DNA of 44,078 bases, from IMG/VR virus record IMGVR_UViG_3300013027_000005, positions 1-44,078 of that record; one strand, 5' to 3'. The notes beneath the pieces were generated by a model. That model was not told the DNA's origin. It saw only the letters and a list, made by a program, of their open reading frames with translations, and searched no databases. Position numbers and translations under genes: made by a program. Of the stretch, positions 1 to 44,078 are shown piece by piece (position 1 is the first letter of the stretch; every line of letters starts with the position of its first letter). This DNA is from a virus.

Positions 1-55
1 ATGTTTGGTGGCACACAGTCATTCAACAAACAGAACCTGGGTAAAGCCCTTCAGA
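1..55. repeat. 55-bp exact terminal overlap (copy 1): circular assembly closure
   Basis: Positions 1..55 (atgtttggtggcacacag...gcccttcaga) are identical to 44024..44078. The overlap lies inside an open reading frame and 44024 is in frame with position 1, so it is an assembly closure rather than a physical end. Confidence 0.95.
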
Positions 56-1593
56 GGGCGGCTGACCGTGGCGAAGTGGAACTGCTGGAGGAACTGACTG
101 GCAAAGAAGCCCTGAACGTACCCAAGGTAAACGGCAAAGCCTATCGTCGTGTCAAGTGGCTTAAGCCCGCACCCATCACCACTCGCTCGCTGCTTGAGGA
201 CCGTCTTACCACTTTGGATGATGAACTCAACGCACCGGACCTGACTGACGAACGGGCGAACGCCATCCTTGACGAGATGGAGGCCATTCAAGATGAGCTG
301 TTGGGCAACATTGACATCACCAGCGCAGATGCAGTGCAACGCTATCAGGCTGACCTACCAGAACACCTGGTGGGCACCACACCTGAAGCCGTACACAACA
401 CCAAGCAACTCATCAAAGCAGACGAGCAGGCTGAGGAGATATTTGCGCTTGAGGCACGCCTTGAGAGTGAGTTGGATGTCATCAAGGAGTCCATCGAACG
501 GTCACTAAACGACCTTGAGAAGTACCCTGACGTTGGCAGACTACCACTTAACGACAACCCAGTCTTTAAGCCCACCCGCCCACGCGACATTGACACAACA
601 CCGATATACACCGGACTGCCATATGAGCTTAACCAGCACACATGGTACCACGGCACTAAGGTTGACAACGTTGACTTGAGTGCTATCGACCCAAGAAGGG
701 GTGGGGCGCGGGGCGAGAACGGTCCAGCTATCTACTTCACCAACCAACCTGACGTAGCCGAGGACTTCGCCAAAGCCACACCCAACGACAACCTGCCATA
801 CCGAGACGACTTTGTTGAGGTGTCAGAAGTGGGTACGGTTCACGAGGTCAAGATGAACATCAGAAACCCTCTGGACGGCAATGAGGTTCCCACAAACCGC
901 ATACGTGACATATTCATTGAAGCTGCTCAAAAGACTGATGTGTTTGACGAGATAGTTGACGCATACGCCAGGAAGCTACGGAAAAACACAACACCACAAA
1001 AAGCCCTCAAGCTTAAGGACTACTGGAATGCTTTTGGTGAAACTATCCAAGACTACCGTGAGAAGGAGTTCTTTGAAGACTCACCCGTGCTTCCCGAACG
1101 TGCTCTGCTGAAGTGGCAGCGTGAGGTGAACCGAGGACTCATTGAACAGGGTTACGACGCGGTTGCGACACGCATTGGTGCTGGTGGTGAGTTTGTGTTA
1201 GCGGCTTTGGTTCCTGATGTTGTTCGTACCACGTTGGCCAAAACCCCGGTCGGAACAGGTGACCTGGTCGAACAGGCAACTGCTCGTGTAAACGCCACAA
1301 GTTACATCGCTGAGGTGTTCCCCGACAGTATTACCGCAAAAGTTGACTTCAGGGAGGCTACTGTGAAGGCACAGAAGCGTATTCAAGAGCAGCTTGAGGA
1401 GCAACTCGAAACTGTTCAGGCTGAGGCAACTCGCCTGGCTGACCACAGCGCTCAAGTGGAGAACAAGCTACGGAAGCAGGCGCGAACACAACAAGTTGAC
1501 CAACGACGTGCCAACGAACGAAAAGCCCTGGCTGACGACGCCAAGGTATACAACGAGAACACCAAAGAACCAGACCCCTGCGGAGCCCCATGA
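1..1593 (+). CDS. C-terminal 530 aa of the junction-spanning giant virion protein; contains an ART-PolyVal-like ADP-ribosyltransferase domain
   Basis: The track ORF starts at the window edge and its M1 is an internal Met. It carries the motifs WYHGT, GPAIYFTNQPDVAEDFA, VHEVKMNIRNPL and GYDAVATRIGAGGEFVLAALVP. Its stop overlaps the next ATG (ATGA at 1590). Confidence 0.85.
   Translation: MFGGTQSFNKQNLGKALQRAADRGEVELLEELTGKEALNVPKVNGKAYRRVKWLKPAPITTRSLLEDRLTTLDDELNAPDLTDERANAILDEMEAIQDELLGNIDITSADAVQRYQADLPEHLVGTTPEAVHNTKQLIKADEQAEEIFALEARLESELDVIKESIERSLNDLEKYPDVGRLPLNDNPVFKPTRPRDIDTTPIYTGLPYELNQHTWYHGTKVDNVDLSAIDPRRGGARGENGPAIYFTNQPDVAEDFAKATPNDNLPYRDDFVEVSEVGTVHEVKMNIRNPLDGNEVPTNRIRDIFIEAAQKTDVFDEIVDAYARKLRKNTTPQKALKLKDYWNAFGETIQDYREKEFFEDSPVLPERALLKWQREVNRGLIEQGYDAVATRIGAGGEFVLAALVPDVVRTTLAKTPVGTGDLVEQATARVNATSYIAEVFPDSITAKVDFREATVKAQKRIQEQLEEQLETVQAEATRLADHSAQVENKLRKQARTQQVDQRRANERKALADDAKVYNENTKEPDPCGAP
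637..1224 (+). other. ADP-ribosyltransferase-like domain (H-Y-E type, ART-PolyVal-like) within the giant protein
   Basis: The candidate catalytic triad is His in YHGT (codon at 649..651), Tyr in IYFT and Glu in GGEFV. The order and spacing resemble PARP/diphtheria-toxin-type ARTs and the ART domain described in phage and plasmid polyvalent proteins. This is a by-eye match only. Confidence 0.6.
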
Positions 1594-4500
1594 CCAACAC
1601 ATCGTGTTTGTACAACCCAGAAGCGAAGGTAGCACCTGAACGCAAAAAGAAGCCGTATCGTCGTAAGTACGAGGCCAACGTTCAGAATGCGAAGGCGCGA
1701 CGCAAAGCCGAAGCTGATGCCGTGGAACGCATGGTGGGCGAGCGTAAGCCCAAGCCCTACAGCAAAGGTGTGTTAACGCCCGAACAGGCCCGACGCCAGC
1801 GCCTAAAGCGACACATGGAAGCGAGCAAGCGACAGATAGCGGACGAACGCCATGCCGAACTTCTCCAACGCGCCCAGCGACGCATCGACAAGCAGCATGA
1901 GTTTCTGTTCAAGGTTGGGGACTTGGCACACGTCAACCCCAACCACATTGATGCTGTGTCGAGTTTTCTTGCCCGTAAGCTGGGCATCAAGAACCGTGCC
2001 ATCATTGACCCATCTCAGTACAGTAAGGCTGGCGAGGTGCGTCAGTTCCTCCTGAATGCCAACCGTATTGCTGAAGGTATGGTTGATGAGATAGGCAACA
2101 TCAGCGGTGCTGCCAAGATAAAAGACATGTACGAGAAGGTGCAGCGTGGTATTGGTAAGACCCTGAGTGCTGACGAACTTAACGAGTTCTTTATGGAACT
2201 TATTGAGGTCGGTCAGATACCTAGTGTGTCCCAAGCCTATCAACCACTGACGGGGGGTCGTCGTTATCTGGACAATATGTACAATGCGTTTCTCGATAGG
2301 TGGGAAGCGCGTGGCTTTGACCCCTATAAGCTGGAGGGCTTGGTAAATGAAGCGGAACAGTTCTCATCGGTCCTTGATGATGTTCGCACTGAAGCTGCTG
2401 TTTTTGGCGTTGACGTTGGAGATATTTTTAGCGGTATCGGCTACAACCCTAGGGTACCTACTGGGGACTTCGCACGGCGAATGCAGTATGCGTCCGAGGC
2501 AGACACGCTCCTGAACAACTGGATAGGCGCAAGCGACGCCAAGGCATACGACGCAGCCGTCAAAAAGAGTCGTGAGACATTTAACTACATCCCTGAGGAC
2601 GACGCCATCGTAGCAGCCCGCCTGAAGCTGTCCGTTGAGGAGATGTACGACCTGATGGACGACACCAACGCATGGCTTGACACACTACACAACAAACTGA
2701 GTGCTGAACAACTCGACACAATGGTGGACGAGGGGCTCATCTCAAAGGTGGGTTTGACCAGTCGTCAGGTGTTTGACTACTTTGTTGACCAGTACGACTT
2801 GCCGTACAAGCAACTGAATGAGATGTTCAAGACCGACCCCAGAGGTGCCCTGAAGTACTACACTGACCAGCTGAAGCGTGACGCTGGCAAGAGTGGCATG
2901 GTTCAAGCTGTTATCAGCCGTGGAACCGAGGAGGGTTGGGTTAAGGCACGTGGCACTGAGCCTAAGGGTTGGGTGCTGCTTGATGGTGACTTCCTGAAGG
3001 ACCGAGGCATTGCCGTCCCTCAGGGTTACAAGGACTACTACGTGCATCCAGCCGTTGCCAAGCAGTGGCGTGACATCCTTGACATGAGTACCGACAGCCG
3101 TAAGCTGAGCGCCGTCGCCCGTACAATGGACTTCCTCAGTTCATACCTGTCCAGTGCTGCTTTGGTGTCAACCGGGTACATCGGTCGTATTGCCCTTGGC
3201 GGCATCATCAGCAGCTTCAGTGCAGGCACAGACCTCGCCAGACTTGTGCCACGGATGGTTGAAGCCATTAACGTGCTCAAGCATGGACCAGACAAGGTTC
3301 TGGACAACACAACCAAACGTTTTGGGCGTGATGCCGATGGCAACGCGATGTACACAGAGCTGGAACTCTACAAAGAGATGCGGCTCAGACGTAAGGGTGA
3401 CCTCATCCCCCACACGCCAGGCGAACACCTCAGTGACTGGGACGACAAGGTGAAGTCCCTGAACCCCATGAATGCCAAGCGTGCTGTTGAGTACATGGCT
3501 TCGACCTTTAAGAACTACGGGGGTGGGGCTGCGGCAGTTGAGGGTCTTCAGCTTCTCAAGAACATCAACAGCGGTATGTATGCGGGCTTTGGCTGGACAG
3601 CAGCTTATCTTGACCTGGCGTTCCGGTGGTCAGCCCTCAAGACCATCATGGACCCAAGCGCGAGTTCTAAGTTTGGACAGCTTCTGAGTGGTCAACACTT
3701 CAGCTACAAGAACATTGAGGAGGGACTTCGTTACATTGACGAGTACTTCCCAACACCTGATGAGGCTGGTCGTGTCACCAAGGAGATAAGTCGCTTCATA
3801 CGACCATTCTTCAGTTATGCTGTGTACGCCCCTCCTGCGGCCCTCAGACACGCCATTCGTAACCCGTCTGGGTATATGAACGCTGAGCGCCTCCAACGCC
3901 TCATGAACAGCGACCTAGCGTCCGATGACAACCGAAACCCTGAGGGTGGCTGGTGGTCGTCAGACCTACGTCAGGTTCCCCACAGTTTGTGGAAGGACAC
4001 AGAAGGCTTTGAGCACATAGTTATGTTCACCCGAAACTTCGACCCCATTCGTGATGGTTGGCAGTCTATTCAGGACTACAGCGACCGCACCAAGGAGCTG
4101 TTTGGGCTTTGGGTTGGAACCAGTGAGGAGAAGCGTAGTCGTATCACCAACCCGGCTGACAGGTTTACCGAGTTCATCCAGGAGGAGTTTGCCTACTTCA
4201 ACCCACTCATTCAAATGGCAATGCGTACAGTTACGGGTGTAGACCCCAGGACAGGTATGCCTGTGTCCCGTGGGTTTGACGTTGACGAGCGTACCATCGT
4301 TGGCCTTCGACTTCCACCCCTGGCGGCTGAACTGCTGAGCACCTACAAGCCCATCATGGACCTGGATAGGTTCAACCCGTTCAACCTCTTTGGAACACCA
4401 GAGATACGAAACAACGACTACAACGCATCAAACAACTTCCAGGGCAGCATACGTCAACCAGGCACCCCAAGCTGGGCAGGGTTCAGCCGCAAGGCCAAAG

Positions 4501-4934
4501 CCGCTGACCGCTCGGAGGCGATGGATAACTGGAAAATACGCATGCTTCAGGCATTTGGTGCCCGTGTTGCTCCGGTTAATGTGGCGGAAGGTATGGATAG
4601 AACATACAGCAGCAACCACTTTGCAGCTAAGGAGCTGAAGGACTCCATTGAGAAGGGATACCTGCGAATGCAGAGTGACACAGGGATGAGTGCCAAAGAC
4701 AAGCAGGCATTGGCGGATGAGCTACACCAGAACATCGACTATCTGGCAGTTATTGAGGCTGACAATGCTCGTGTTCAGCAGTGGCTTGTGGACAACAAGG
4801 TGGCACCCAAGTATGCCCGTGAGAAGCTGCGAAACAAGGTCATTAAGGACATGCGCTACCCACGTGACAGCTTTGCCAACGACCTGATAAATGAAATGGC
4901 CAAACGCCATCAAGAAGTAGAGGACGCTAAATGA
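1590..4934 (+). CDS. Large virion-associated protein (1114 aa), function unknown, with a hyper-basic N-terminus
   Basis: Long ORF that is ATGA-coupled at both ends within the internal-protein gene chain. Residues about 15-110 are K/R-rich (KKKPYRRKYEANVQNAKARRKAE...RRQRLKRHMEASKRQ). I recognised no catalytic motif. Confidence 0.7.
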   Translation: MTNTSCLYNPEAKVAPERKKKPYRRKYEANVQNAKARRKAEADAVERMVGERKPKPYSKGVLTPEQARRQRLKRHMEASKRQIADERHAELLQRAQRRIDKQHEFLFKVGDLAHVNPNHIDAVSSFLARKLGIKNRAIIDPSQYSKAGEVRQFLLNANRIAEGMVDEIGNISGAAKIKDMYEKVQRGIGKTLSADELNEFFMELIEVGQIPSVSQAYQPLTGGRRYLDNMYNAFLDRWEARGFDPYKLEGLVNEAEQFSSVLDDVRTEAAVFGVDVGDIFSGIGYNPRVPTGDFARRMQYASEADTLLNNWIGASDAKAYDAAVKKSRETFNYIPEDDAIVAARLKLSVEEMYDLMDDTNAWLDTLHNKLSAEQLDTMVDEGLISKVGLTSRQVFDYFVDQYDLPYKQLNEMFKTDPRGALKYYTDQLKRDAGKSGMVQAVISRGTEEGWVKARGTEPKGWVLLDGDFLKDRGIAVPQGYKDYYVHPAVAKQWRDILDMSTDSRKLSAVARTMDFLSSYLSSAALVSTGYIGRIALGGIISSFSAGTDLARLVPRMVEAINVLKHGPDKVLDNTTKRFGRDADGNAMYTELELYKEMRLRRKGDLIPHTPGEHLSDWDDKVKSLNPMNAKRAVEYMASTFKNYGGGAAAVEGLQLLKNINSGMYAGFGWTAAYLDLAFRWSALKTIMDPSASSKFGQLLSGQHFSYKNIEEGLRYIDEYFPTPDEAGRVTKEISRFIRPFFSYAVYAPPAALRHAIRNPSGYMNAERLQRLMNSDLASDDNRNPEGGWWSSDLRQVPHSLWKDTEGFEHIVMFTRNFDPIRDGWQSIQDYSDRTKELFGLWVGTSEEKRSRITNPADRFTEFIQEEFAYFNPLIQMAMRTVTGVDPRTGMPVSRGFDVDERTIVGLRLPPLAAELLSTYKPIMDLDRFNPFNLFGTPEIRNNDYNASNNFQGSIRQPGTPSWAGFSRKAKAADRSEAMDNWKIRMLQAFGARVAPVNVAEGMDRTYSSNHFAAKELKDSIEKGYLRMQSDTGMSAKDKQALADELHQNIDYLAVIEADNARVQQWLVDNKVAPKYAREKLRNKVIKDMRYPRDSFANDLINEMAKRHQEVEDAK

Positions 4935-5479
4935 CCTACATCATTAAGTACAACCGTATTCCGGTGTTGGGGCGCGAGCCCCTGTACACGGAGGCAGATA
5001 CGGCACCACTCAACCCCGAAGTGGGAGACAGGTTTCTGCACACACCCACTGGTGACTCGTTTGTGTGGAACGGGACGTTGTGGATGGGTGAGAGTCCCAT
5101 CTTTTACACGGTGCTCCAGGATGGTGCTTCCCAAAACCGCCTAAACATGGTCACGTTTCCAACCACCACACATGACATCCTTGTACGTAACCTATCGGGT
5201 GTGCTGTTCATGTCCTCGTCCGTAAACCTGACAGACCTTAACTACTGGGAGGTGGAAATACGGAGCGCTAACTTTGCAAAGAACTACGTACGACTACCCG
5301 GAGGTCTCTACTCTGGACAGAACCGAACCCAGAACACGTTCCACCCCTTCAGCATGACGTTCGATGTCGTTCTCGACACAACAACCGTGTGGGGTGTGCG
5401 GAACCAACTCATCAAACGCGGAAGCCCAGCTCCCTGTAACTGCACGTACACAGTACGACTACATAAGGTATACCGATGA
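4931..5479 (+). CDS. Small fibre/receptor-binding-like protein, paralog 1 (182 aa)
   Basis: ATGA-coupled to the upstream gene. It shares GDxFxHTPxxxxFxWxGxLW, FPxxxHDxLxxN, NYW and VWGxRxxLxKxGxP blocks with the next ORF. It lies at the terminal position of the late operon. Confidence 0.6.
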   Translation: MTYIIKYNRIPVLGREPLYTEADTAPLNPEVGDRFLHTPTGDSFVWNGTLWMGESPIFYTVLQDGASQNRLNMVTFPTTTHDILVRNLSGVLFMSSSVNLTDLNYWEVEIRSANFAKNYVRLPGGLYSGQNRTQNTFHPFSMTFDVVLDTTTVWGVRNQLIKRGSPAPCNCTYTVRLHKVYR

Positions 5480-6048
5480 CCGCACAAAGTTTATACGAAG
5501 AAAAGAAAGTCAGAAGTCGAGTGGTTGGGCGTCAGACCCGTCACACCGCTAACATCACAGCTCCGCGTGTACGGCAGGAGGGTGACACGTTTACGCACAC
5601 ACCTAGTCAGACACAGTTTCGTTGGACCGGAAGTCTTTGGCGCAGCATTGACGGCTTCACGTTTCACCTTGACCGCATATCCGCTTCCGGTGGGTTCTTT
5701 CAACGGATAGCGTTTCCCAACAATGTGCATGACGTGCTCATCACAAACATGTGGGTAATGTTGCTGGTCAACGGTACAGCCAACGACGCGGCGAACTACT
5801 GGAGCTACGACCTGGACGGACACAAGCTGGATGGCTCACGACCCTCCACCGGTTCAAGTAACGGCTCAACGGCGGCTGATGCTCCTGGCGTCTGGCTGCG
5901 TAAGACACATCCACTCAACTATCGTGTTGGTCCGGTAAGTACGTCAAGTGTTTGGGGCTTGCGCTTCAACCTGGTCAAGACGGGTTTGCCCAGTAACCTG
6001 GACCTGTCGGTAAACGTCGAGGGATGCTTTATATACAACGGACCATAA
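5476..6048 (+). CDS. Small fibre/receptor-binding-like protein, paralog 2 (190 aa)
   Basis: ATGA-coupled and homologous to 4931..5479 (same motif blocks). It is the last gene before the convergent terminator. Confidence 0.6.
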   Translation: MTAQSLYEEKKVRSRVVGRQTRHTANITAPRVRQEGDTFTHTPSQTQFRWTGSLWRSIDGFTFHLDRISASGGFFQRIAFPNNVHDVLITNMWVMLLVNGTANDAANYWSYDLDGHKLDGSRPSTGSSNGSTAADAPGVWLRKTHPLNYRVGPVSTSSVWGLRFNLVKTGLPSNLDLSVNVEGCFIYNGP

Positions 6049-14287: not shown

Positions 14288-14661
14288 AGATACCTCTTAG
14301 GAACGCGAATGCCTTCAAACCACCCAAACCCATGTGAGTCACACCAGGATGCGTATGTGACCTTGGAGGTGGGGTTAAGCCGTAAGTTCGAGTTCTGGAA
14401 CTGGAACACGAGCTCTACGTCTGGATGCGCGGCTCGGACTGCCAATGCTTTCGTCCGGTCTGCTGCTGTGAACACTCCCTTCGACTCGATGAATACCCCC
14501 TTGGGAGTCATCCAGTCCGGTGTGTACCTGTGCTTGACTTGGTACTCCAGCCGCCTCTGTTCGTACATCAGCGACGGGTTCGCCAGTGCTATTGAAGCTT
14601 CGAACTGGCTCTTGTACTTCACTCCGTCCTGTGTCGTTCGCTTTCCGCGTTGCCGTGACAT
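14284..14661 (-). CDS. T7 endonuclease I-like Holliday junction resolvase
   Basis: KSQFEASIA...HRYTPDWMTPKGVFIESKGVFTAADRTKALAVRAAHPDVELVFQF...TSKVTYASWCDSHGFGW aligns by eye with T7 gp3 (HTYTPDFLLPNGIFVETKGLWESDDRKKHLLIREQHPELDIRIVF...PTSYGEFCEKHGIKF). Confidence 0.8.
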   Translation of the reverse strand: MSRQRGKRTTQDGVKYKSQFEASIALANPSLMYEQRRLEYQVKHRYTPDWMTPKGVFIESKGVFTAADRTKALAVRAAHPDVELVFQFQNSNLRLNPTSKVTYASWCDSHGFGWFEGIRVPKRYL

Positions 14662-34034: not shown

Positions 34035-37000
34035 TGGTCCAACAACTACAACAGCAGCCAGAAGACGCCATCCAGAGCTATAACTTTGGGGGACTTATGA
34101 CAGCATCCAACCCCCTGAATATCCCACCAACCCACAGTCCTCTGCTGCTGAACGCTGACATTGACGACAACGGCAACGTCACCAAACGCAAGGGCACACG
34201 GTCAATGCTTTTCCGAGATGGTCCCATAGCTGAGGGGTTTCTCACCATTCCTTTTGTGTCCACCCTTGGTTACAACTACACAGTAACCAAAGAGGACTTG
34301 GCCATCAAGGTGTACAACACACTGGACAACGTGACCAGTTTGCTGCTGACCAAGGAGAACGTCTGGACCAGTGCTGTTAGTCGTGTGAGACCGACCTACG
34401 CCATTACGTCCGAAGCCCAACCCCGCATCATTATGTGTACCGGGGCCAACGCACCCGTGGAGTTGAAGTTCACCGAAAGCAGTTTGGATGTAGCACCTAC
34501 AACAGCCACTACCACTACTGTGTTCGGGAGTGCCTCCCCTTTCAAGAATGCCTCAACCGTTAACTGTTTGGTCTACTTCGACCGTACCCGTGTTGTGTCT
34601 CCCACATTTACATACGACGCAACAACCGGAAACCTCACAGTTGGGGGTCTGCCGAGCCACACAGGAGCACACACGGTTGACCTTGTGTTCGTTGTTTGGG
34701 GTGTGTGGGTCGAAGCCATTCGCCACTTTGGTTATGAGCTTTATGACACCACGACACGTTTTCACGTTGCACAGACCGACAACAATGTAGCAGTCCCAGA
34801 GGGCATATGGGCTGACGCTGAGCCGTTGGGGACCGCACAACTACGCTGGCCTATTCTTGCATACCCAGGTACCACTGGCAGTGGTCATGTTCTTAATGGT
34901 AGTCGTAACCCCGCAACCGCAAACGAGTACAGCTTCAGTGACGGCACAGCATACAAGAAGGACACACCTGTAGTTGGTGTCACAACCAACCCCAGTCCGC
35001 TGTTCATTACGTTTGGAGCCATCACTGCCAGCAGCCCACCCACCGCTGTTCACTTTGTGCGAGGACGTGCCCTTAACTTCCGAGGGAACCTCATTGAAGG
35101 TGTCGAAGCCAACTACTTCCAGGTGTATGTTGATGGTGTTGAGAAGCCTCAGCTCGGTAACCCACACGTACCTTACCAATACGGAACCTGGTCGCTTCGC
35201 TACCACGCTGACTATAACCTGGTGCCTGATGGCGCTACCCCTGCAAAATACATCACATTCGACCGCTACAGTGAAAACCGAGGACTTCCCAAAACAGCTA
35301 TTGTAGACCTCATTCAGAAAAAGAACTACAACAACGTTGGTACGGCATTCTATTTCGAGAACGTTGGACGTGCGACCGACATTGATGGCTGGAGGGTTCC
35401 GGCTTACGGCATCCAAAACTTCAGCAACTACAGAACTAACTCACACCCCCGTAACGTAGCCCTCTACCAGGGACGTTTGGTGTTTGGTGGTTGGAAGGAT
35501 AACCCACTGCTGGTGGCCTTTAGTGCCGTCTACGATGCCAACACTCCTGGCGTTAACTTCCAGTACTTCCAAGTCGGAAGTCAAAATACAAGTCAACTAG
35601 ATGCGCTTGACGTACTGTTGCCGTCATCCAGTGATGACCGCGTGACAGCCATCGTCGAGTGGCAGTCGTCGTTGTTCATTCTTACACGAAAAGCAGTCTT
35701 TCGACTGTACTCTGGTGAGGGTCAACAGCTAAACCTCACGTCTCGTTACGTGTCGTTTGTCTCAAACCGTGGTCTGGTAAACCCACACTGTGTCGTTCGA
35801 ACCGATGACTCTGTGTTGTACCTGACTGACCGGGGCCTCTACTCGTTGGGTAGTGCTACTCAAAGTGGTGAGTACGACACACGAGACAAGAGTGAAAGCA
35901 TCCGAGACATGTTTGGTTTGACCACGAACCTGTCATACGAGTCACTCGCCTGGGTGGCTTGGGATGGTCTTAACCAGTTCGTCTATATCGGGTACCCCAC
36001 TACGGAGTCACTGGCACACGCCAAACGTCTGTTGGTGTACAATAACCATCGTGGGTCGTGGACTGAATACGACACACCAAACGGGTTTAACCCCATCTTC
36101 ATGTCACCCTATACGGACCGGGCTTTGGGGGCGGGAATGATGATGAGCTGCTCCAGGTACAGCGGACTACACATTCTCAAGATGAACAACGACGACACAT
36201 TCATCGACTTTGCCAGGTACGTCAACATGACCACGGCAAACCTGAACACGCTACGCAACCTGGAAGTGGCTGAGATAACCCACACCACCAACACAGGTCA
36301 GCAGGAGTACCGTACGAGCTACTCAACTATTCCGCTGTCCAACATTTACGACAGCATCGTGACTTTGAACGGCGTTGTCCAGGAACCTGGGGTGGACTGG
36401 CGTAAGTTACCCAACGGCAGTATCTGGTTGAACTCACCGCCTGGAGGGGGCATAACCCTCACCATACGAATGAAGGGTACTCACGGCAACTCTCCTGTTT
36501 GTGTGTTTCTGAATGGAGAGCATCTGGATGAAGACGTTCACTACACCGTCAGTGGAAACATTATTTCAATGCTTCCTGGTGTGTTGTCAGACACTGAAAC
36601 GAATGCTGTCATTGTAGGCCAAGTCTACAACTGCATCTACACCAGTCCGATGTTCAGTCGTCAGCGTCTCGATAGCTTTAAACGCCTTCGACACATCCTG
36701 GCCTACTTCGACAACCGTAACCGCAAAGCAAGGCTGAACGCCAACATATCGTGTCTCTACAGCAGTGAGATGGATGGTGAAACCAGTGCCGACATCTACC
36801 AGTTTGATGAGATAGCCTGGGACGTGGACAACCTCACATCATCTCAGTTTCAACTCTTTAAGGAGGCGATACAGGGTGTGGGCTACAGCTTTCAGTTCAT
36901 GTTGTGGTCGTCTGATGAGGCTACCTTCCGTTTGTGTGGCTATCAGATAGACGCAAAACTCAAAGGAAAACGATATGCACACAAAGGAGCAGATGTGTAA
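34031..37000 (+). CDS. Tail tubular protein B / nozzle-like protein (about 988 aa; probable start ATG 34034)
   Basis: It is a large beta-rich ORF after the gp11-like gene, analogous to T7 gp12 by order. No catalytic motif recognised. Confidence 0.55.
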   Translation: MMVQQLQQQPEDAIQSYNFGGLMTASNPLNIPPTHSPLLLNADIDDNGNVTKRKGTRSMLFRDGPIAEGFLTIPFVSTLGYNYTVTKEDLAIKVYNTLDNVTSLLLTKENVWTSAVSRVRPTYAITSEAQPRIIMCTGANAPVELKFTESSLDVAPTTATTTTVFGSASPFKNASTVNCLVYFDRTRVVSPTFTYDATTGNLTVGGLPSHTGAHTVDLVFVVWGVWVEAIRHFGYELYDTTTRFHVAQTDNNVAVPEGIWADAEPLGTAQLRWPILAYPGTTGSGHVLNGSRNPATANEYSFSDGTAYKKDTPVVGVTTNPSPLFITFGAITASSPPTAVHFVRGRALNFRGNLIEGVEANYFQVYVDGVEKPQLGNPHVPYQYGTWSLRYHADYNLVPDGATPAKYITFDRYSENRGLPKTAIVDLIQKKNYNNVGTAFYFENVGRATDIDGWRVPAYGIQNFSNYRTNSHPRNVALYQGRLVFGGWKDNPLLVAFSAVYDANTPGVNFQYFQVGSQNTSQLDALDVLLPSSSDDRVTAIVEWQSSLFILTRKAVFRLYSGEGQQLNLTSRYVSFVSNRGLVNPHCVVRTDDSVLYLTDRGLYSLGSATQSGEYDTRDKSESIRDMFGLTTNLSYESLAWVAWDGLNQFVYIGYPTTESLAHAKRLLVYNNHRGSWTEYDTPNGFNPIFMSPYTDRALGAGMMMSCSRYSGLHILKMNNDDTFIDFARYVNMTTANLNTLRNLEVAEITHTTNTGQQEYRTSYSTIPLSNIYDSIVTLNGVVQEPGVDWRKLPNGSIWLNSPPGGGITLTIRMKGTHGNSPVCVFLNGEHLDEDVHYTVSGNIISMLPGVLSDTETNAVIVGQVYNCIYTSPMFSRQRLDSFKRLRHILAYFDNRNRKARLNANISCLYSSEMDGETSADIYQFDEIAWDVDNLTSSQFQLFKEAIQGVGYSFQFMLWSSDEATFRLCGYQIDAKLKGKRYAHKGADV

Positions 37001-38223
37001 TGGCTGGTGCCCTTCCCATTGTAACTGGTGTCGTTAGTGGTGTTAGCGCTATTGGCGGCATCAGTGCCCGACGCAAGCAGGCGAAAGCCGAAGCTGCATC
37101 CCTCATGGAACAAAAAGCTGCACGTGAGGAACAGACTCGACTACGACTACAAGAACTTGACTTTCAACAAACACTACGTGAAAAGAACCGACTTCTGGAG
37201 CAGATACAGGCGACTCTTGCCTATGACCAACAGAAACAACAACTCGCCTCCAACAACCTTCAAGACCTCCAGCAGCTTCAGACTAACCTATTTGAGAACG
37301 CTCAACAGTACCAACAGGCTGCAACTGGCAGTGTAAAAACCAAAGCCAGTGGTGACCAAGCCATAGGCCAGAGCGCTGAACAGGCAAACCAGGTCATGAG
37401 TCAAGCCCTAGGCGCAAGTACGGAAGGTTTCCAGCAACAGACCGGAACCAATATGCAGGCAGGTCAAGCCCTGGACGAAAAAGCGATGCAAGCCGCCGCT
37501 ATGGAGGGGTTGTTTGCCGCTATGGGTGTCAGTCCTCAGAACAGCCAAGGTTCAATGGGTATGCTTGACGCCAGTGCCAACGAAGCTGCCAAAACCCTCC
37601 AACAACTCACGTCTGCAAACAACAACACCTCTGGAATGGACGCCATCCAAACGGGGTATGCTGCTGACATGGCTGAGCTTATTGCGAAGTCAGGTCTGGT
37701 GAACGCCAACACACTGGATGCAACTGCCGACAACCAGATGGAGTATGCCCGTGCAATGGCTGAGGGCAACCGCAACAACGCCAAGATACAGCGTGACCTG
37801 AACTACACAGGAATGCAGGGGGCTAGGACTGGTGTTGACCTTGGTCGTCTGGCTGAAATAGAGGGTGACAGAAGCACAAACGAGTATGCCCAGAAGCTAT
37901 ATGAGAACCAGAAGGAACTCATTAAGAAAACTGGGGCTTCGGATGCTCGGCTACTGGACATTCAAAAGGGAAGCATTAGCAAGCCTGGACTGTTCAGTAT
38001 GCTAGGCGCAGGCCTTCAGGGTTACAACACCTACCAGAGTATGCGCCCCATGCCCACAGCCGTCCCCATGCCCGGTGCTCGTCCTGTGTCGTCATTCCTG
38101 ACGCAGCAGCCCATACCCCAAGCCGGAGGCATTATGAACAACAACGCCTACCGTGCCATGCTACAAGACAGCCTCAAGGCGTCTGACGGCTCAAGTCCCC
38201 AAGTCTATAACCCACAGTTCTAG
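37000..38223 (+). CDS. Internal virion protein (407 aa from ATG 37000) with an N-terminal TM segment and a Q-rich coiled coil
   Basis: It is TAATG-coupled to the upstream gene. The N-terminus is MAGALPIVTGVVSGVSAIGGI. It occupies a gp13/gp14-like position. Confidence 0.55.
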   Translation: MAGALPIVTGVVSGVSAIGGISARRKQAKAEAASLMEQKAAREEQTRLRLQELDFQQTLREKNRLLEQIQATLAYDQQKQQLASNNLQDLQQLQTNLFENAQQYQQAATGSVKTKASGDQAIGQSAEQANQVMSQALGASTEGFQQQTGTNMQAGQALDEKAMQAAAMEGLFAAMGVSPQNSQGSMGMLDASANEAAKTLQQLTSANNNTSGMDAIQTGYAADMAELIAKSGLVNANTLDATADNQMEYARAMAEGNRNNAKIQRDLNYTGMQGARTGVDLGRLAEIEGDRSTNEYAQKLYENQKELIKKTGASDARLLDIQKGSISKPGLFSMLGAGLQGYNTYQSMRPMPTAVPMPGARPVSSFLTQQPIPQAGGIMNNNAYRAMLQDSLKASDGSSPQVYNPQF

Positions 38224-38285: not shown

Positions 38286-41200
38286 ATGCCATTACGACTC
38301 ATCGGTGTCGATAGGCCTGTCGTGAATGCCCAGTTCCAAGCTGGCTCACTGGCCCAAACCAACGACCAAAGTGGCGAAGCACTCGAACAGGGCTCCCAGT
38401 TGCTCCAAAAGGCGGCTGGGACTCTGGCGGGGGCCAACGCTGACATTGCAAAGAATAGCCAACAGATGACTGAGAACACCATCCAAGGTTCTCAACGTGT
38501 TGCCGACAACGCACTTAAGATAGCTGAGGTAGCTGGTCGTCGTCAGGCTGACTTCTCTAAGAACCTCAGTCAGATATCTGAGGGCCTCACCCAGTTTCAA
38601 AACGTTAACTTCAGACGCCAACAGGCACAACTTGAGGCCAACCAAGCCCAAGCGCAGGCCATCGCCAAAACCGAGGAGGCCAACCGCAAGACCGCAGGTG
38701 ACTACGAGTACACACAAGCTAGCACCGAAATGGAGCAGCTTAAGCTGAACGCCTATGACCTCATCAACAAGGAAGGTGAGCCTGCATACGTTCGTCGTGT
38801 ACTCGAAACTGCACAGAAGTATAAGACCCTTACACCTGAACAGATACGAACACTGACCTCAAGTGGCTATGCCGATGCCCAGCGTGTCCAGAAGGACCAG
38901 GTTGAAAAAAAGGTAGCCTACACCAAACAGGTGCAGGAACGCTTAGTTGAGCAGGCTAAGCAAGAAGGCATGATGACCATCAGTGCCCTGGTAACCTCAC
39001 TCGACACACCAATGCCTGCTGACAAACGTCAGGCTAAGTTGAATGAGTTACGTGGGGCGATGGACACGTTCGTTACAGGTGTAGACGGCATTGACGACCT
39101 TGGTCGTATCAGTGTCATCACTGCACTGTTGGAGACTACCAACAAGTACACGGCTGCTGGGATGAATGCGTCCCAGGACCGTGCTCAAGTCATTACTGAC
39201 CTGAAAAACTACTCAGACGCCATTTTACCACTGAGCCTTAAGGTTCAACGTGGTGAGATGACCATTGAGGACTACTACTACGAACGTGCCAAACTCAAAG
39301 CCGCCAACAGCATTACAGGCGCAACACAGTTTGACGACCCGAACGCAGCCCTCCGTTGGCGAGCTGACCAGATGGGCCTCAACTCAACCATCAACCAGTA
39401 CGGCGACGCTGAGCGAAACCGGGCGATGGCACAGATGGAGGTTGACCCCTTCGGTCTGGCACAGATGGTTTACGCTGTTGTGTACGACGCCACTCCCATT
39501 GAAACCTTTACCCTGGACCCTGCTTACAAAGGTACGGCATGGGCAGGCGCTTTGGAGAACGTTGTTGGTGACGTTGAGAAGCTTGAGAAGCTACGTCGTG
39601 AAGGCCCAGTCCGAACCGCCAAGCTTAAGCAGGCCCTAGCAGCCGTCAACAAGCAGGAATACGACAAGTCCTACAGTCTCCTCAAGGAGGCTTACGGCGG
39701 CACTAACCAGGTGTTTGACGTGTTCTCCCAGATGATGGGTGTGACACCTCAAGCCAAGCAACAGATACCCGCTGCTGAGCGTGACGCTGTCATCAAGGGC
39801 TGGTTCCAAAACTCAGCCGCAATGAAGCAGGCGCTTGTTGATGAGTACTCAGGTATTCAAAAGGAGCAGGGAGCCCTGGAGGCCACACTCTCCAAGTACG
39901 GTCTACAGAACGGTAAGTCAAGCTACAACGTCTGGCAGAAGGAGAACCGTCCTCAGATAGAAGCGGCATTAAAACGTCGTAGTGATGTGTTGTTTGGTGC
40001 TTCGAAAGGACCGGAGGCACTACCGGACCCTATTCGGGGCGGTAATGGTTCCACTGCTGCTCTTAAGCGCATTACCGTCAACAACGATAAGGGTAAGAGT
40101 CTCAACATCCCTATCCCATTCAAGAGTTCCGTTGGTAGCCTGAAGATGACCAGTCCGTATGGTATGCGTGTTCACCCCGTACATGGGGGACACAAACACC
40201 ACGACGGTATCGACATTGCGGGGGGAACTGGTAACGACATGGTTGTAGCCATGACTCCTGGCAAGGTGACGTTTGCAGGCCGCATGGGGGGTTACGGTAA
40301 CCGTGTTGAAGTCCGACACGCAGATGGTACCGTCACGACTTACAGTCACCTCTCAAAGATACACCTGAAGCGTGGGCAGATGGTGTATGCGGGTTCAGGC
40401 ATCGGCAACATGGGAACCACTGGCACGTCTACGGGCAACCACCTTCACTTTGAGGTCCGCACTGGGACCGACGAAAACGGTAAGAACGGTCAGAGCATTA
40501 ACCCACTCATCTACCTGGAGCAACTAGCTGCTGGTAAGGTGGGCAGTACTCCTATGCCACGCAACAACACAACTGTTGGACCACATTACGGTCCTGTCAA
40601 GCTACCAGCAGGCTCTATACCCCTGGGTGACGGTACGTACTACTACAAAGGAAAGCGCCATAAAGTTCTCAATGCGACTTTTACGAATGGTGGTGTTGCA
40701 TCTCCTGGAAACACTACTCGAACACATAACAAAGCCAACCCCGTCAGAAGCGGAAAATGGAGCACAAACAAAGCCGACTACGACTGGCCAAATGACGAAA
40801 AGGCCAACTACGGCTACGGAGCGCTTAGCCGTCATGGTCCAAAAGCGACACAAAAGCTCGCCTGGGTTGCCAACAAGCTTGGCATTCCCGCCGTATGGCT
40901 GGCGGACATGTTACACAACGAGAGCGGTTTTAACCCTGATGCTGATAACGGTATTGGATATCAGGGACTCATCCAGTTCAACGCAGACAACCGACGACGC
41001 TACGGTGTCACAACCGGACAAAGCTTCGAGTCACAGATGAATGCTGTGTACAAGTACCTTCATGGCCGTGCTATGGAGATGGGTGGTCTGCACACGCTTC
41101 AACGTGGTCCTGAAAGCGTTATGCTGGCTATCTGGGCTGGCCCTGGACTACACCGTAAGTGGCTGAATGGTGAAAACATAGACGGCGCTGGCGATGGTTG

Positions 41201-41405
41201 GATAAAGTTTGGTGCGTACAAAAAGAAGATGGGCGCTTCGGTTGGACGGCAGTACAACTACGGTGGTTCATCCTCTAGACGTGCCCGTCTGACTACTGGT
41301 TTATCTGCAAAAGCAAACCCGAACACGCGTGAGGGTGCCGCGCTCATAGCTGCTGGCGCGCCTGACGTACCACACTATCACAGTTCAACTGAGGCATTAG
41401 CATGA
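38286..41405 (+). CDS. Internal/ejected virion protein with M23 peptidase and lytic transglycosylase domains (1039 aa)
   Basis: The M23 domain is PYGMRVHPVHGGHKHHDGIDIAG...GNHLHFEVR (about 40150..40470). The SLT-like domain is WLADMLHNESGFNPDADNGIGYQGLIQF (catalytic Glu codon at about 40920). Confidence 0.8.
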   Translation: MPLRLIGVDRPVVNAQFQAGSLAQTNDQSGEALEQGSQLLQKAAGTLAGANADIAKNSQQMTENTIQGSQRVADNALKIAEVAGRRQADFSKNLSQISEGLTQFQNVNFRRQQAQLEANQAQAQAIAKTEEANRKTAGDYEYTQASTEMEQLKLNAYDLINKEGEPAYVRRVLETAQKYKTLTPEQIRTLTSSGYADAQRVQKDQVEKKVAYTKQVQERLVEQAKQEGMMTISALVTSLDTPMPADKRQAKLNELRGAMDTFVTGVDGIDDLGRISVITALLETTNKYTAAGMNASQDRAQVITDLKNYSDAILPLSLKVQRGEMTIEDYYYERAKLKAANSITGATQFDDPNAALRWRADQMGLNSTINQYGDAERNRAMAQMEVDPFGLAQMVYAVVYDATPIETFTLDPAYKGTAWAGALENVVGDVEKLEKLRREGPVRTAKLKQALAAVNKQEYDKSYSLLKEAYGGTNQVFDVFSQMMGVTPQAKQQIPAAERDAVIKGWFQNSAAMKQALVDEYSGIQKEQGALEATLSKYGLQNGKSSYNVWQKENRPQIEAALKRRSDVLFGASKGPEALPDPIRGGNGSTAALKRITVNNDKGKSLNIPIPFKSSVGSLKMTSPYGMRVHPVHGGHKHHDGIDIAGGTGNDMVVAMTPGKVTFAGRMGGYGNRVEVRHADGTVTTYSHLSKIHLKRGQMVYAGSGIGNMGTTGTSTGNHLHFEVRTGTDENGKNGQSINPLIYLEQLAAGKVGSTPMPRNNTTVGPHYGPVKLPAGSIPLGDGTYYYKGKRHKVLNATFTNGGVASPGNTTRTHNKANPVRSGKWSTNKADYDWPNDEKANYGYGALSRHGPKATQKLAWVANKLGIPAVWLADMLHNESGFNPDADNGIGYQGLIQFNADNRRRYGVTTGQSFESQMNAVYKYLHGRAMEMGGLHTLQRGPESVMLAIWAGPGLHRKWLNGENIDGAGDGWIKFGAYKKKMGASVGRQYNYGGSSSRRARLTTGLSAKANPNTREGAALIAAGAPDVPHYHSSTEALA

Positions 41406-44078
41406 GTCTGATATCCGACATCCAGTCACAGAACGACAAACGGGTACAGGTACAACCCCCAATGGCAGCAATGCCCCCGACCCCAAGCCCCCTACCTGAC
41501 ACCTCTCTAATACCTGTGTCCCCAAACAGCAGCGGAGCTGCGCTCCCTGGAGAGGCATCTACAAGCCCCGTGGTGACCCCTGAGATGTCGGCCCCCACAG
41601 ATGCTGGCCCAGCGCTTTTTGACCCCGCTACGCAGGACGTGGGTGGCGCTCAGACGACATCCACTCCTGCTCCCGACATCAGCAACCCACTGACCCCCGC
41701 TTTGGACCCCATTGCGGGGGAACTCATTAACGCCCCTGTCTCTGTAGGCGAGGAAAGTAAGTTCCAGGAAGCAGGCGCACCCACAGTTGGTGAAGTAGCT
41801 GAACTGACTACTGCCAAGAACCAACTCGACAACATCAACACAAACGCACAACTTGAGAACGTCAAGGACCTGGATGCTCCTGATGCCTGGTACGACGGTT
41901 TCATGTATGAGGGCCCCTCGACTGAGGAACTGCTAGCCGAGTTTAAGACTGATGCGGCTGACATTGTTGACCGCATCGACTGGAACGCATCCCAAGCCCC
42001 CCTTGTGTCACGTATTCCTCCAGCCCCGAACGTTACACCCCAGAAGTTCGCAATGAACAGCACGGGTAACGCCTTTGGAAACCAGCCTAACGGAACGTTT
42101 ACGCCTTTTGGTGGTGCGTTCAGTGATGGTCGTCTGTCGTGGGATGAGGCCAAGATGCTGCTTCAACACGACTGGGCACGTGACAGTGACAAGAAGTTTA
42201 GGTATGGCGACCGCCCCAACGGTTTGATGTGGGCGTTATCCATGCCTGGTGCTGTTGCACGTGGTGCCATCGGCCAAGCCCTCAACGCTGCTGGTGTAAA
42301 AAGGTTTGCTGGTGTGTCGGCTGCTCAGGGTTTTCGTGGTGCTGACTACGACTCGGCTGCTTATCAGAACAAACGCAACCCGTTTGCAATGGTTGGTGTT
42401 GGTGTTCAGCAGGGCACTGCTAAACCGAAGGAGTTCCGTACTGGCATTGGCATTCTGGACAAAGCACTGAACACTGGTAGTCGTGCTGTAACGAGTTGGA
42501 ACAACAACTCAAAACTCTACAGTCAGATAGCTGCTGGCCTTCTGGTTGACGCGGTTACTGACCCACTTGACTTTGGTGTTGACAGGCTTTACGCCCTACG
42601 AAAAGCGCGCATCTCTGGCAAGGTCACACCACCTACGCCTAAACGCGCACCCATCCCTGACTCAAGTGCCCTGGTACACGTCCCAAACCCACGTGTATCT
42701 GCCCGTGTCACTCAAACCGTTCGCGCACTTCCAGCAGCCCCTGTTAAAGCCCTACCTATTCCAAGGACTATGGGCGCTCTGCCGTCAGTACCACGATACA
42801 CACCACGTATTGCGTTACCTCCGTCATCCAAACTACGTGACACAGTAAGTACTGCACGTAAAACTCGTGAGGTGTTGGAAGCTGACATCAGAAAGCGGGT
42901 TCAACAGACCATCAAAAAGAACGCCATTGTCAAACCCAAAGATGTCGAGATACCAGCTAACCTGGCTATCATTGATGTTCGTGCCGTGGAAGTACCTGAT
43001 GGTGTGTCTAAGGTAACCAACCCTGGTCACCGTGCTGTTGCTGTACCTGTCAACCGAACCCCAAGCGCAACCAAACCTGGAGAGGTTCCCAATGTTGTGT
43101 CAGAACTCGTCCGTCGTGGTGCTTACACAGTACAGGATGGTGTGCTGACTAGTACGAAAGCAGATGCTGTGTTTCAGGCTCGTGCTGTTGCCCGTGTTGA
43201 TGCGGAACTCACACGTCTAGCTGACATGGTGGACAGTGATGTGGTCGTTGAACTGAACCGCATTCTGGAGATGGCTGATGAGGTGGTCCCCGGTGCTCTG
43301 GCAAAGGTTAAGGATGAGGTGTTCAGTCTTGTTGCCGCCAAAGCCCCCGCGCCCATCAAGAAGCAAATACTACAACTCCAGGGTGTTAAACAACAACTAC
43401 TTTCTCCAGCAAAAGTAAGTGCCACCACTGAGAACATCGTTCCCACATCCACTGATGACCTCCTGGCAGAAACAGCAGAACTGCCTGTAGTTAAGCCTGT
43501 TGACCTGGTGGGCACACCTGACGCTGATGTTGTGGTGCGTGAGCTTGAAGAGCTGCCTGCTGGTGGTCGTATTGCTCCTGAAGTGGTGGAAACACCTGTG
43601 CGTCGTACCAACAAAGACTTAACCGAGTTGGCTGCGTCAATGGGACACATCAAACCACGCAAGAAACCCCTCAGCCGTAAGCAACTGGACCTGTTGGAAG
43701 CCAAGCATGGTGACCTTTACAAGCCTCTGGGTCGTGATGTTAAGGACACAGTACAGAAGTTACGGGCTTCGGGCACACAACTAGAGGTGGCTCCGGCACA
43801 GGTGGATGGTACACCTGCCCAGACTATGACACTGGACATGCGTCAGCCACTCAGTTACGAAGAGGCCAAGGCGGTTGAGCGCAGTATGCGTGAAACCGAA
43901 ACAGCAGGCAGAGCTGAGCGTGTTGCGCGTGAAAACGCCACGTCTCCACTGGCGGCTGAAGCGCGTGGAGTTGACGATGAACTACTTCGTCGTGTGTTGG
44001 ACCAGACTGACGACATTGCTTCGATGTTTGGTGGCACACAGTCATTCAACAAACAGAACCTGGGTAAAGCCCTTCAGA
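41402..44078 (+). CDS. Giant virion-associated (internal/ejected, polyvalent-type) protein, N-terminal part; continues across the junction into 1..1593 (about 1404 aa in total)
   Basis: This ORF is absent from the supplied track because no stop occurs before the window end. I translated from ATG 41402 (MSLISDIQSQNDKRVQVQPPMAAMPPTPSPLPDTS...) to 44078 and found no stop. The ATG overlaps the TGA of the preceding gene (ATGA). The frame is continuous with ORF 1..1593 through the 55-bp overlap. The listed antisense ORFs 41650..42153 and 43174..43704 are shadows of it. Confidence 0.85.
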   Translation, partial: MSLISDIQSQNDKRVQVQPPMAAMPPTPSPLPDTSLIPVSPNSSGAALPGEASTSPVVTPEMSAPTDAGPALFDPATQDVGGAQTTSTPAPDISNPLTPALDPIAGELINAPVSVGEESKFQEAGAPTVGEVAELTTAKNQLDNINTNAQLENVKDLDAPDAWYDGFMYEGPSTEELLAEFKTDAADIVDRIDWNASQAPLVSRIPPAPNVTPQKFAMNSTGNAFGNQPNGTFTPFGGAFSDGRLSWDEAKMLLQHDWARDSDKKFRYGDRPNGLMWALSMPGAVARGAIGQALNAAGVKRFAGVSAAQGFRGADYDSAAYQNKRNPFAMVGVGVQQGTAKPKEFRTGIGILDKALNTGSRAVTSWNNNSKLYSQIAAGLLVDAVTDPLDFGVDRLYALRKARISGKVTPPTPKRAPIPDSSALVHVPNPRVSARVTQTVRALPAAPVKALPIPRTMGALPSVPRYTPRIALPPSSKLRDTVSTARKTREVLEADIRKRVQQTIKKNAIVKPKDVEIPANLAIIDVRAVEVPDGVSKVTNPGHRAVAVPVNRTPSATKPGEVPNVVSELVRRGAYTVQDGVLTSTKADAVFQARAVARVDAELTRLADMVDSDVVVELNRILEMADEVVPGALAKVKDEVFSLVAAKAPAPIKKQILQLQGVKQQLLSPAKVSATTENIVPTSTDDLLAETAELPVVKPVDLVGTPDADVVVRELEELPAGGRIAPEVVETPVRRTNKDLTELAASMGHIKPRKKPLSRKQLDLLEAKHGDLYKPLGRDVKDTVQKLRASGTQLEVAPAQVDGTPAQTMTLDMRQPLSYEEAKAVERSMRETETAGRAERVARENATSPLAAEARGVDDELLRRVLDQTDDIASMFGGTQSFNKQNLGKALQ
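44024..44078. repeat. 55-bp exact terminal overlap (copy 2)
   Basis: Identical to 1..55. Removing one copy gives a 44,023-bp circle. Confidence 0.95.

Follow-up and report, generated by a model that had tools for sequence, protein, structure and literature searches.

A predicted ADP-ribosyltransferase domain of the polyvalent-protein type on a gp27-like ejection protein of a virus related to cyanobacterial podoviruses

The viral DNA of the IMG/VR record IMGVR_UViG_3300013027_000005 (positions 1 to 44,078, 44,078 nucleotides, hereafter the window) encodes, across its joined ends, a 1404-residue protein homologous to the ejection protein gp27 of the cyanopodophage A4. The modelling and the profile comparisons described below indicate that this protein carries, at residues 1088-1305, a real ADP-ribosyltransferase (ART)-fold domain of the polyvalent-protein type. 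We make this assignment because sequence profiles, comparison with prototypes, structure prediction and fold searches agree. The predicted catalytic triad is His1091-Tyr1119-Asp1260 (H-Y-D), and the domain is probably an injected, active effector that modifies the host and travels on the ejection protein.

Bases 1-55 of the window are identical to bases 44024-44078, and the window represents a complete contig, circular or terminally redundant, whose unit is 44,023 bp, not a fragment of a larger replicon. Because of these 55-base identical ends, the open reading frame (ORF) that touches base 1 is artificially truncated in the linear presentation. Circularisation and translation showed that it is open upstream across the junction and runs from 41402 to 1593 on the + strand, its ATG at 41402 overlapping the stop codon of the preceding gene (ATGA). 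The 5′ part of the gene lies at 41402..44078 (+) and continues at base 56, as bases 44024-44078 repeat bases 1-55; the 3′ part, at 1..1593 (+), encodes residues 875-1404, which contain the ART-like domain and the C-terminal helix. Residue n of the window ORF corresponds to residue n+874 of the full-length protein, i.e., H217, Y245 and D386 are H1091, Y1119 and D1260. The giant virion protein proposed by the first-pass annotation, which had been made from the sequence alone, thus proved to be 1404 residues long, and could be seen as such only once the contig had been circularised.

Fold and active site of the domain

Four blocks, WYHGT, GPAIYFTNQPDVAEDFAKA, VHEVKMNIRNPL and GYDAVATRIGAGGEFVLAALVP, follow each other in frame 1 of the + strand between positions 637 and 1224. 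In the full-length protein WYHGT starts at residue 1089, GPAIYFT at 1115, VHEVKMN at 1154 and GYDAVAT at 1258. These were the blocks on which the first-pass annotation had based an ART-like domain related to those of polyvalent proteins, and their order is beyond chance in the light of the Pfam (E 2.2e-5 to 2.9e-5), hhalign (95.4% probability) and Foldseek results given below. The ART-fold domain as a whole was delimited at 640..1293 (+), that is, full-length residues 1088-1305 or window-ORF residues 214-431, from the AlphaFold2 model and the Foldseek, Pfam and hhalign comparisons.

The only meaningful Pfam match of the domain was ART-PolyVal (PF18760), with 25.3-25.7 bits and E 2.2e-5 to 2.9e-5 over profile positions 9-101 of 140. 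When the helices at model positions 127-181 were deleted in silico, the match extended through GYDAVAT to profile position 113 and the score rose from 25.7 to 28.2 bits. The prototype of this family is the virion RNA polymerase (vRNAP) of Roseovarius Plymouth podovirus 1 (RPP1), CBX87992.1 (Iyer et al. 2017, PMC5512222), and the ART segment of RPP1 itself reached only 36.5 bits on the same profile, over positions 5-70. Among 51 domain homologues, 21 matched ART-PolyVal at E<0.01 (best 8.3e-7), 12 matched DUF3990, a family of the ART clan (PMC7955679), and one matched PARP. A profile built from the 51 domain sequences weakly picked up PARP12 (E 0.04) and tankyrases (E about 1), in both cases over the His and Tyr blocks. 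In profile-profile comparison with hhalign this family profile matched the RPP1 ART alone with 92.9% probability, and the ART domains of three N4-like vRNAPs with 95.4% probability (E 1.7e-8), the GYD of the family being aligned to the GYDG of the prototypes. The kinship with polyvalent-protein ARTs is upheld by this match and by the ART-PolyVal-like proteins found in the fold search.

An exhaustive search over 1.84 billion representatives recovered 95 clusters that share the domain; among the complete ones, most are proteins of 1000-2200 residues. A word-indexed homologue search returned nothing with the domain sequence or with the RPP1 ART, and only four fragments with the family profile. 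A phmmer search of the sequences in the PDB with the full-length protein gave no match either; only the family profile found A4 gp27 there.

AlphaFold2, when given the alignment of the 51 domain homologues, produced a domain model with a predicted local distance difference test score (pLDDT) of 93.4 and a predicted template modelling (TM) score of 0.89; the prediction from the single sequence was uninformative (pLDDT 36.6). The model consists of a strand at positions 14-20 (containing His16, which is H1091), a strand at 43-46 (containing Tyr44, which is Y1119), a helix, strands at 73-84 and 89-91, four helices within 98-181, and finally strands at 186-191, 196-201 and 207-216, with D1260 placed just ahead of strand 186-191. 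When this model was compared with the PDB by Foldseek, the best match was A4 gp27 (9k3a_B; E 1.6e-10, TM 0.66), in whose cryo-electron microscopy (cryo-EM) map the homologous domain is resolved, followed by MbcT (E 4.7e-4) and AcrIF11 (E 5e-4). Weaker matches comprised tankyrases, exotoxin A, PARP13, RES toxins, PARP4, PARP1 and diphtheria toxin (DT), and the top 50 were all ART-fold proteins or A4 gp27, barring one NrdR chain at rank 29. Against the predicted viral structures of BFVD, the first match was Pf-WMP3 gp26 (E 2.9e-15, TM 0.83), and dozens of entries named ART-PolyVal-like followed with E 1e-9 to 1e-4. Both the profile match and the ART fold on which the first-pass annotation had staked its proposal were therefore found.

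We then consider the residues of the active site, which were scored in the family alignment. The strand 1 motif WYHGT lies at 643..657 (+); its predicted NAD-binding His1091 (649-651) was conserved in 97/97 sequences, as was the Gly1092 that follows, and the next residue was Thr or Ser in 96/97. The strand 2 motif GPAIYFT, assigned to a strand in the AlphaFold2 model, lies at 721..741 (+) and contains Tyr1119 at 733-735, a position taken by Tyr in 74, His in 19 and Trp in 2 of the 97 sequences. Around it, Gly1115 (95/97), Thr/Ser1121 (89/97), Ala1127 (93/97) and Ala1131 (86/97) were conserved. Strands 3-4 lie in the VHEVKMNIRNPL block at 820..876 (+), which hhalign aligned with PHVKEVAVDLQKPM of the RPP1 ART. 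The GYDAV motif at the start of strand 5 lies at 1150..1164 (+), with the predicted catalytic Asp1260 at 1156-1158. Towards this end of the domain Glu1240 (78/88), Gly1258 (83/87) and Asp1260 (77/88) were conserved, and an H-[Y/H/W]-[D/E] arrangement was kept in 78 of 87 complete domains, Glu standing in the Asp column in only 4 of the 87.

The first-pass annotation had read the blocks as the H-Y-E architecture of PARP/DT-type ARTs, and this was the part of it that was not confirmed, the acid being most plausibly Asp1260 (D386 of the window ORF). Two Glu residues had been candidates. The Glu of VHE (E1156, at 844-846) is Glu in only 42/97 sequences, and the Glu of GGEF (E1271) in 10/62, within a region of insertions and deletions; both were rejected as the catalytic acid. 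Asp1260, in turn, paired in hhalign with the GYDG Asp of all three N4-like ARTs when a relaxed alignment threshold was used. The triad is predicted to be H-Y-D and not H-Y-E because Asp1260 is conserved and aligned to the strand 5 Asp of the prototypes, while both Glu candidates are unconserved. Membership in the PARP/DT-type H-Y-E clade was rejected for the same third position, which holds Asp in place of the strand 5 Glu of that clade. The PARP-like look is explained by the HG[ST] and G-x-G-I-Y-[LF]-[TS] strings; the PARP 'HGS/HGT' signature is tabulated in PMC7955679, and WYHGT fits it. The Alt/VIP2 clade with its Arg-Ser-Glu (R-S-E) residues was likewise rejected, given the H, Y and D residues and no PF01129 or PF03496 match in the window protein. 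In practical terms, the catalytic mutant to make is that of the Asp, not of a Glu.

For the ART-PolyVal family, an active site has been described in which strand 1 supplies a His, strand 2 a Tyr and strand 5 an Asp (Iyer et al. 2017, PMC5512222). The window domain presents this H-Y-D configuration, profile homology to bona fide members, the ART fold, and a large carrier of the virion-packaged kind, so that by most tests it belongs to the H-Y-D ART-PolyVal/N4-ART clade (Tox-ART-HYD2-like), the failed test being the Pfam threshold.

The helical insert that the first-pass annotation had put at roughly 90 residues is real, and measures about 84 residues between strand 4 and strand 5. In the AlphaFold2 model it is a four-helix insertion (895..1146, +; full-length residues 1173-1256), with helices at model positions 98-109, 115-126, 137-154 and 165-181. 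The N4-like prototypes have about 30 residues at this position, and the window insert is about 65 residues longer than that of RPP1. It is also the most variable and gap-rich part of the family, with an entropy of 3.2 bits vs 2.1 in the His-Tyr core and the lowest occupancy. AcrIF11 has a poorly conserved helical region, similarly placed, for which target recognition was proposed (PMC12421852), and by analogy we infer that the insert may be a target-recognition module.

The carrier protein and its genomic surroundings

When the PDB was searched with the family profile, the match was to residues 1415-1619 of the 1717-residue chain B of 9K3A, which is A4 gp27 (E 3e-22), and the sequence alignment to 9k3a_B covered the C-terminal domain only. 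In A4, an Anabaena cyanopodophage, gp26-gp29 assemble on the portal, within the capsid, into a pre-ejectosome that is pentameric and has three layers (Hou et al. 2025, PMC12002296). There, gp27 was detected in purified virions, and in the pre-ejectosome it was resolved as part of the outer gp26/gp27 ring, with the first turn of DNA in the cleft between both proteins; residues 114-154, part of its N-terminus, form a plug between gp28 and gp29, and its Cys1715 is disulfide-bonded to Cys5 of gp26 (PMC12002296).

Four consecutive genes of the window follow the order of A4 gp29, gp28, gp27 and gp26. The gp29-like innermost ejection protein (36934..38223, +) matched 9k2v_V over nearly its full length with E 0.0029, and was identified from this match plus synteny. 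The gp28-like ejection protein (38286..41405, +) carries an M23 peptidase (Pfam M23, 2.4e-27) and a lytic transglycosylase (SLT) domain and matched 9k2v_E with E 8.7e-35. The ART-bearing gene comes next, and its partner, the gp26-like ejection protein (1590..4934, +), matched 9k3a_A with E 1e-101, its start overlapping the upstream stop (ATGA). The C-terminal helical tail of the ART-bearing protein (1294..1590, +) ends in PDPCGAP, with Cys1401 at 1579-1581, and the gp26-like protein begins with MTNTSC, with Cys6 at 1605-1607, so that both partners of the A4 disulfide are present. In 7/7 isolate and window proteins, a Cys is located 2-4 residues from the C-terminal end, and across 31 full-length representatives it is nearly invariant. 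Homology to gp27, gene order, the C-terminal Cys and the N-terminal Cys of the gp26-like protein all point to an A4-type gp27. Because the four consecutive genes are homologous to the A4 gp29-gp26 pre-ejectosome proteins, the ART rides on an ejection protein, and the chain of internal or ejected proteins in which the first-pass annotation had placed the domain is borne out by homology and synteny. The gp28-like, gp27-like and gp26-like genes are linked by ATGA start/stop overlaps (41402-41405 and 1590-1593), which suggests translational coupling of the ejection proteins.

By DNA and tblastn comparison, the contig falls among the podoviruses of filamentous cyanobacteria, including Pf-WMP3, Cyanophage PP, LPP-1/LPP-2, TR020 and CHP58, several of them classified in the Saffermanviridae; within the domain, the protein identity to them was only about 27-33% (tblastn). 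The annotated isolate homologues are 1471-1712 residues long and are encoded upstream of another protein of 1000-1150 residues and, where annotated, directly downstream of a roughly 1000-residue M23/transglycosylase protein; the unannotated CHP58 homologue has about 1205 residues. The H-Y-D domain lies about 100 residues from the C-terminus in PP, TR020, CHP58, A4 and the window, whereas in the homologues from Morrisvirus and Wumpquatrovirus it occupies the middle of the protein (about residues 620-830); the representatives P0039 and P0091 have two copies of it. In the window protein, proline- and alanine-rich low-complexity stretches occur from 41402 to about 42100 (residues 1 to about 230) and at residues about 430-500, and in the full-length family alignment the nearly invariant prolines fall in the N-terminal half.

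Several database labels in this phage group have to be corrected, namely 'tail fiber', 'ParB-like partition nuclease' and 'tail protein'. PHROGs labels the product of 1590-4934 as 'tail fiber protein; host specificity' (E 1e-156), and the same mislabel appears on the PP, LPP-1 and LPP-2 records. This product is homologous to A4 gp26, which is an ejection protein of all-alpha structure located within the capsid. For the ART-bearing protein, the label 'ParB-like partition nuclease' of PHROG 33290 (also given to NC_022751.1 V420_gp26) was rejected, since no ParB Pfam match was found in the window protein or in that of Cyanophage PP; the stretch matched by PHROG 33290 (profile 1416-1698 of 1712) is confined to the ART-like domain and the C-terminal tail.

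The gp26-like gene is followed at 4931-6048 by two small ORFs (182 and 190 residues), neither with a PHROG match. The genes numbered next to gp26 in A4 are gp25, for the cement protein, and gp24, for the tail fibre; within the window, no gene stood out as an obvious tail-fibre gene. A Cas4-domain exonuclease (6122-7036, -; PHROG 1990, E 7e-30) begins a leftward replication module that also includes a DNA polymerase (12745-13923) and a primase/helicase (14375-16195). No tRNA genes were found within the window.

Proposed function and alternative explanations

In the effector reading, packaging of the carrier in this phage, access of the domain to the cytoplasm, catalysis and the target are the parts that we infer. 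By homology to A4, five copies of the protein would be incorporated into the outer pre-ejectosome ring within the capsid, each of them tethered to its gp26-like neighbour by the C-terminal helix and the disulfide of the C-terminal Cys, with the ART domain directly preceding this helix. At infection, they would be expelled together with the three other ejection proteins. On meeting cytoplasmic nicotinamide adenine dinucleotide (NAD+), His1091/Gly1092 and Tyr1119 are predicted to hold the NAD+, and Asp1260 to activate the ribosyl-nicotinamide bond, so that ADP-ribose might be passed to a host macromolecule selected by the variable helical insert. Such a modification would precede any phage gene expression, and might serve host takeover or anti-defence. 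Virion packaging and an injected role like that of T4 Alt have been predicted for polyvalent-protein ARTs (Iyer et al. 2017, PMC5512222).

Several points weigh against an active injected enzyme. The profile match that the first-pass annotation had called for was obtained (ART-PolyVal, E 2.2e-5), with a score of 25.3-25.7 bits that stays below the Pfam gathering cut-off of 31.2, and the 28.2 bits reached after the in silico deletion of helices are still below it. The Asp column is non-acidic in 9/87 domains and the Tyr column is His in 19/97. The geometry of the pocket was deduced from secondary structure and alignments, and the convergence of His, Tyr and Asp and the openness of the NAD pocket are model-based predictions. 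NAD+ is cytoplasmic, and this part of the ejectosome would have to arrive there. In A4, furthermore, the homologous domain is built in ordered form into the pre-ejectosome, beside the packaged DNA, so that a purely architectural role is possible. Finally, the searchable literature yielded no experiment in which any ART-PolyVal domain was shown to be active.

This architectural role is the core of the first alternative, a pseudo-enzyme whose ART fold would persist solely as a brick of the pre-ejectosome and ejectosome, structural or in contact with DNA, with no NAD+-dependent chemistry. The location of the homologous A4 region in the outer gp26/gp27 ring, with a DNA turn in the cleft, is in keeping with it, as are the sub-threshold Pfam score and the absence of the Asp from some family members. 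Nor did the A4 authors call gp27 an enzyme: their paper treats it purely as an ejection and DNA-anchoring protein, and the string 'ribosyl' has 0 occurrences in it (PMC12002296). However, a scaffold needs no invariant His-Gly, no G-x-G-x-Y-[LF]-[TS] strand and no G-Y-D motif. When 31 full-length proteins were aligned, the columns averaged 11% identity, and nearly all of the near-invariant positions other than prolines were ART motif residues, plus the C-terminal Cys, so that, prolines aside, these motifs are what the protein as a whole conserves best. What is conserved also coincides exactly with the residues by which active ART-PolyVal and AcrIF11-type enzymes are defined.

The relatives provide a further point against a mere brick, as some of them add a second, intact ART of the R-S-E kind, which argues for ART delivery. 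The homologues of LPP-1 (g29, L005:4018-8433, residues 1261-1416) and Pbo-yong3, in which the H-Y-D domain lies mid-protein, carry this canonical R-S-E ART near the C-terminus, with motifs LYRG, STS and ESE and with Pfam scores of 38.7 bits (ART) and 34.2 bits (ADPrib_exo_Tox), both above the cut-off. The representative P0010 likewise carries a second ART domain. The H-Y-D domain was found in all examined gp27-type members and the extra R-S-E domain in some; the window protein is without it, and no other effector domain was found in it by Pfam scan. In the 31 representative full-length proteins, the domains detected by Pfam at E<0.001 were of ART type only. The GenBank label 'mono-ADP-ribosyltransferase-like' of the Pbo-yong3 protein was rejected as a precedent for the H-Y-D domain, as it most likely reflects the separate C-terminal R-S-E ART. 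Taken together, we regard the pseudo-enzyme as unlikely.

A second alternative retains NAD+ chemistry and changes its outcome: the domain would consume NAD+ as a hydrolase or phosphorylase (MbcT/RES- or NADase-like), or would be an ART directed to nucleic acid (DarT-like, acting on host or phage DNA or RNA), and would not modify protein. Among solved enzymes, the best match was indeed the ART-fold toxin MbcT, which is an NAD+ phosphorylase (E 4.7e-4), and RES-Xre toxins were matched too; the homologous A4 domain adjoins capsid DNA, and the ART superfamily includes modifiers of nucleic acids (Iyer 2017, PMC5512222). Yet the MbcT/RES fold matches are weak (TM 0.36-0.45), the H-Y-D residues differ from the RES signature, and the domain shows sequence kinship with ART-PolyVal together with PARP-like H-Y motifs. 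As protein and nucleic-acid targets are not discriminated by these data, this explanation is a variant of the injected effector and not its opposite, and we give it a small probability. Chance resemblance in a fast-evolving, low-complexity virion protein that has no ART domain, for which the negative whole-protein phmmer search of the PDB, the negative word-indexed search with the domain and the single-sequence pLDDT of 36.6 could be cited, is already refuted by the 95 representative clusters that share the domain, the confident ART-like profile-based model, the agreement of independent profile methods and the experimentally resolved domain of the A4 homologue.

The effector reading can be widened to the whole family, and we put this forward tentatively, as a possibility that falls short of probable. 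The gp27-type ejection proteins of the podoviruses of filamentous cyanobacteria might form a modular platform for ART delivery, in which the H-Y-D domain would be active and would modify a cyanobacterial target within seconds, with the insert setting the specificity. Candidate targets would be RNA polymerase, a defence complex, or the DNA packed beside the domain. If true, the A4 map (9K3A) would contain the first virion-packaged ART visible, though unrecognised, in situ by cryo-EM.

Comparison with known ART systems

The closest system is ART-PolyVal itself. Its prototypes and the window domain share the block order YHGT / G-x-[YF]-[FL]-T-N..A..[YF]AK / V.EV....P[LM] / GYD[GA], with a His in strand 1, an aromatic residue in strand 2 (Phe in the three N4-like prototypes, Tyr in the window domain) and a G-Y-D motif that places an Asp where strand 5 starts. 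As in the prototype, the domain lies within a very large protein of the kind packaged in podovirus virions. It is longer by about 65 residues (three additional helices) in the segment that runs from strand 4 to the helix preceding strand 5, and it differs in its carrier, which is a structural protein of the ejectosome and neither a vRNAP nor a polyvalent protein containing a peptidase. With the PARP/DT H-Y-E ARTs the window domain shares the HG[ST] and G-x-G-I-Y-[FL]-[AT] motifs and the fold, which matched tankyrase, exotoxin A and DT. However, its third residue is Asp, it has no PARP regulatory/helical domain, and the TM scores were only 0.3-0.4.

AcrIF11 is a proven phage ART with the key residues H-F-H-D and the catalytic Asp115 (PMC12421852). 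This phage/plasmid anti-CRISPR protein (PDB 6KYF) has a small ART fold with a His, an aromatic residue and a catalytic Asp, and was matched by Foldseek with E 5e-4 and TM 0.49 (normalised by target length) at about 10% identity; no sequence-level relationship between AcrIF11 and the window domain was detected. In contrast to the window domain, AcrIF11 is free-standing, has about 130-180 residues, is made after entry and is not packaged in the virion. T4 Alt is the other way round: it is an ART packed in the head, injected with the DNA, that modifies host proteins, e.g., RNA polymerase (Iyer 2017, PMC5512222), but it belongs to the R-S-E Alt/VIP2 clade and is an internal protein of a myovirus, not a part of a podovirus ejectosome. 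The window protein has a weak match to PHROG 832 (1.4e-5 over 54 residues) in this comparison. Of the analogy to Alt drawn by the first-pass annotation, the logic of a head-packed, injected ART therefore stands, while the clade does not.

Virion-packaged ARTs on large podovirus proteins had already been described. What is new is the carrier, a core ejectosome protein of cyanopodoviruses, the added helical subdomain, and the presence of a homologous domain in the A4 cryo-EM structure, where it was resolved yet unrecognised. A4 gp27 has the H-Y-D residues as YHGT, GTYFS and GVDAL; it differs from the window protein in its length (1717 vs 1404 residues), and the domains are about 21% identical. 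Apart from T4 Alt, ARTs packaged in the head were until now a matter of bioinformatic prediction (Iyer et al. 2017, PMC5512222). In A4 the packaging of the carrier and its position in the capsid have been solved by cryo-EM, and both A4 and its host, Anabaena PCC 7120, are genetically editable, so that the role and the target of an injected ART-PolyVal become directly testable in A4/Anabaena PCC 7120.

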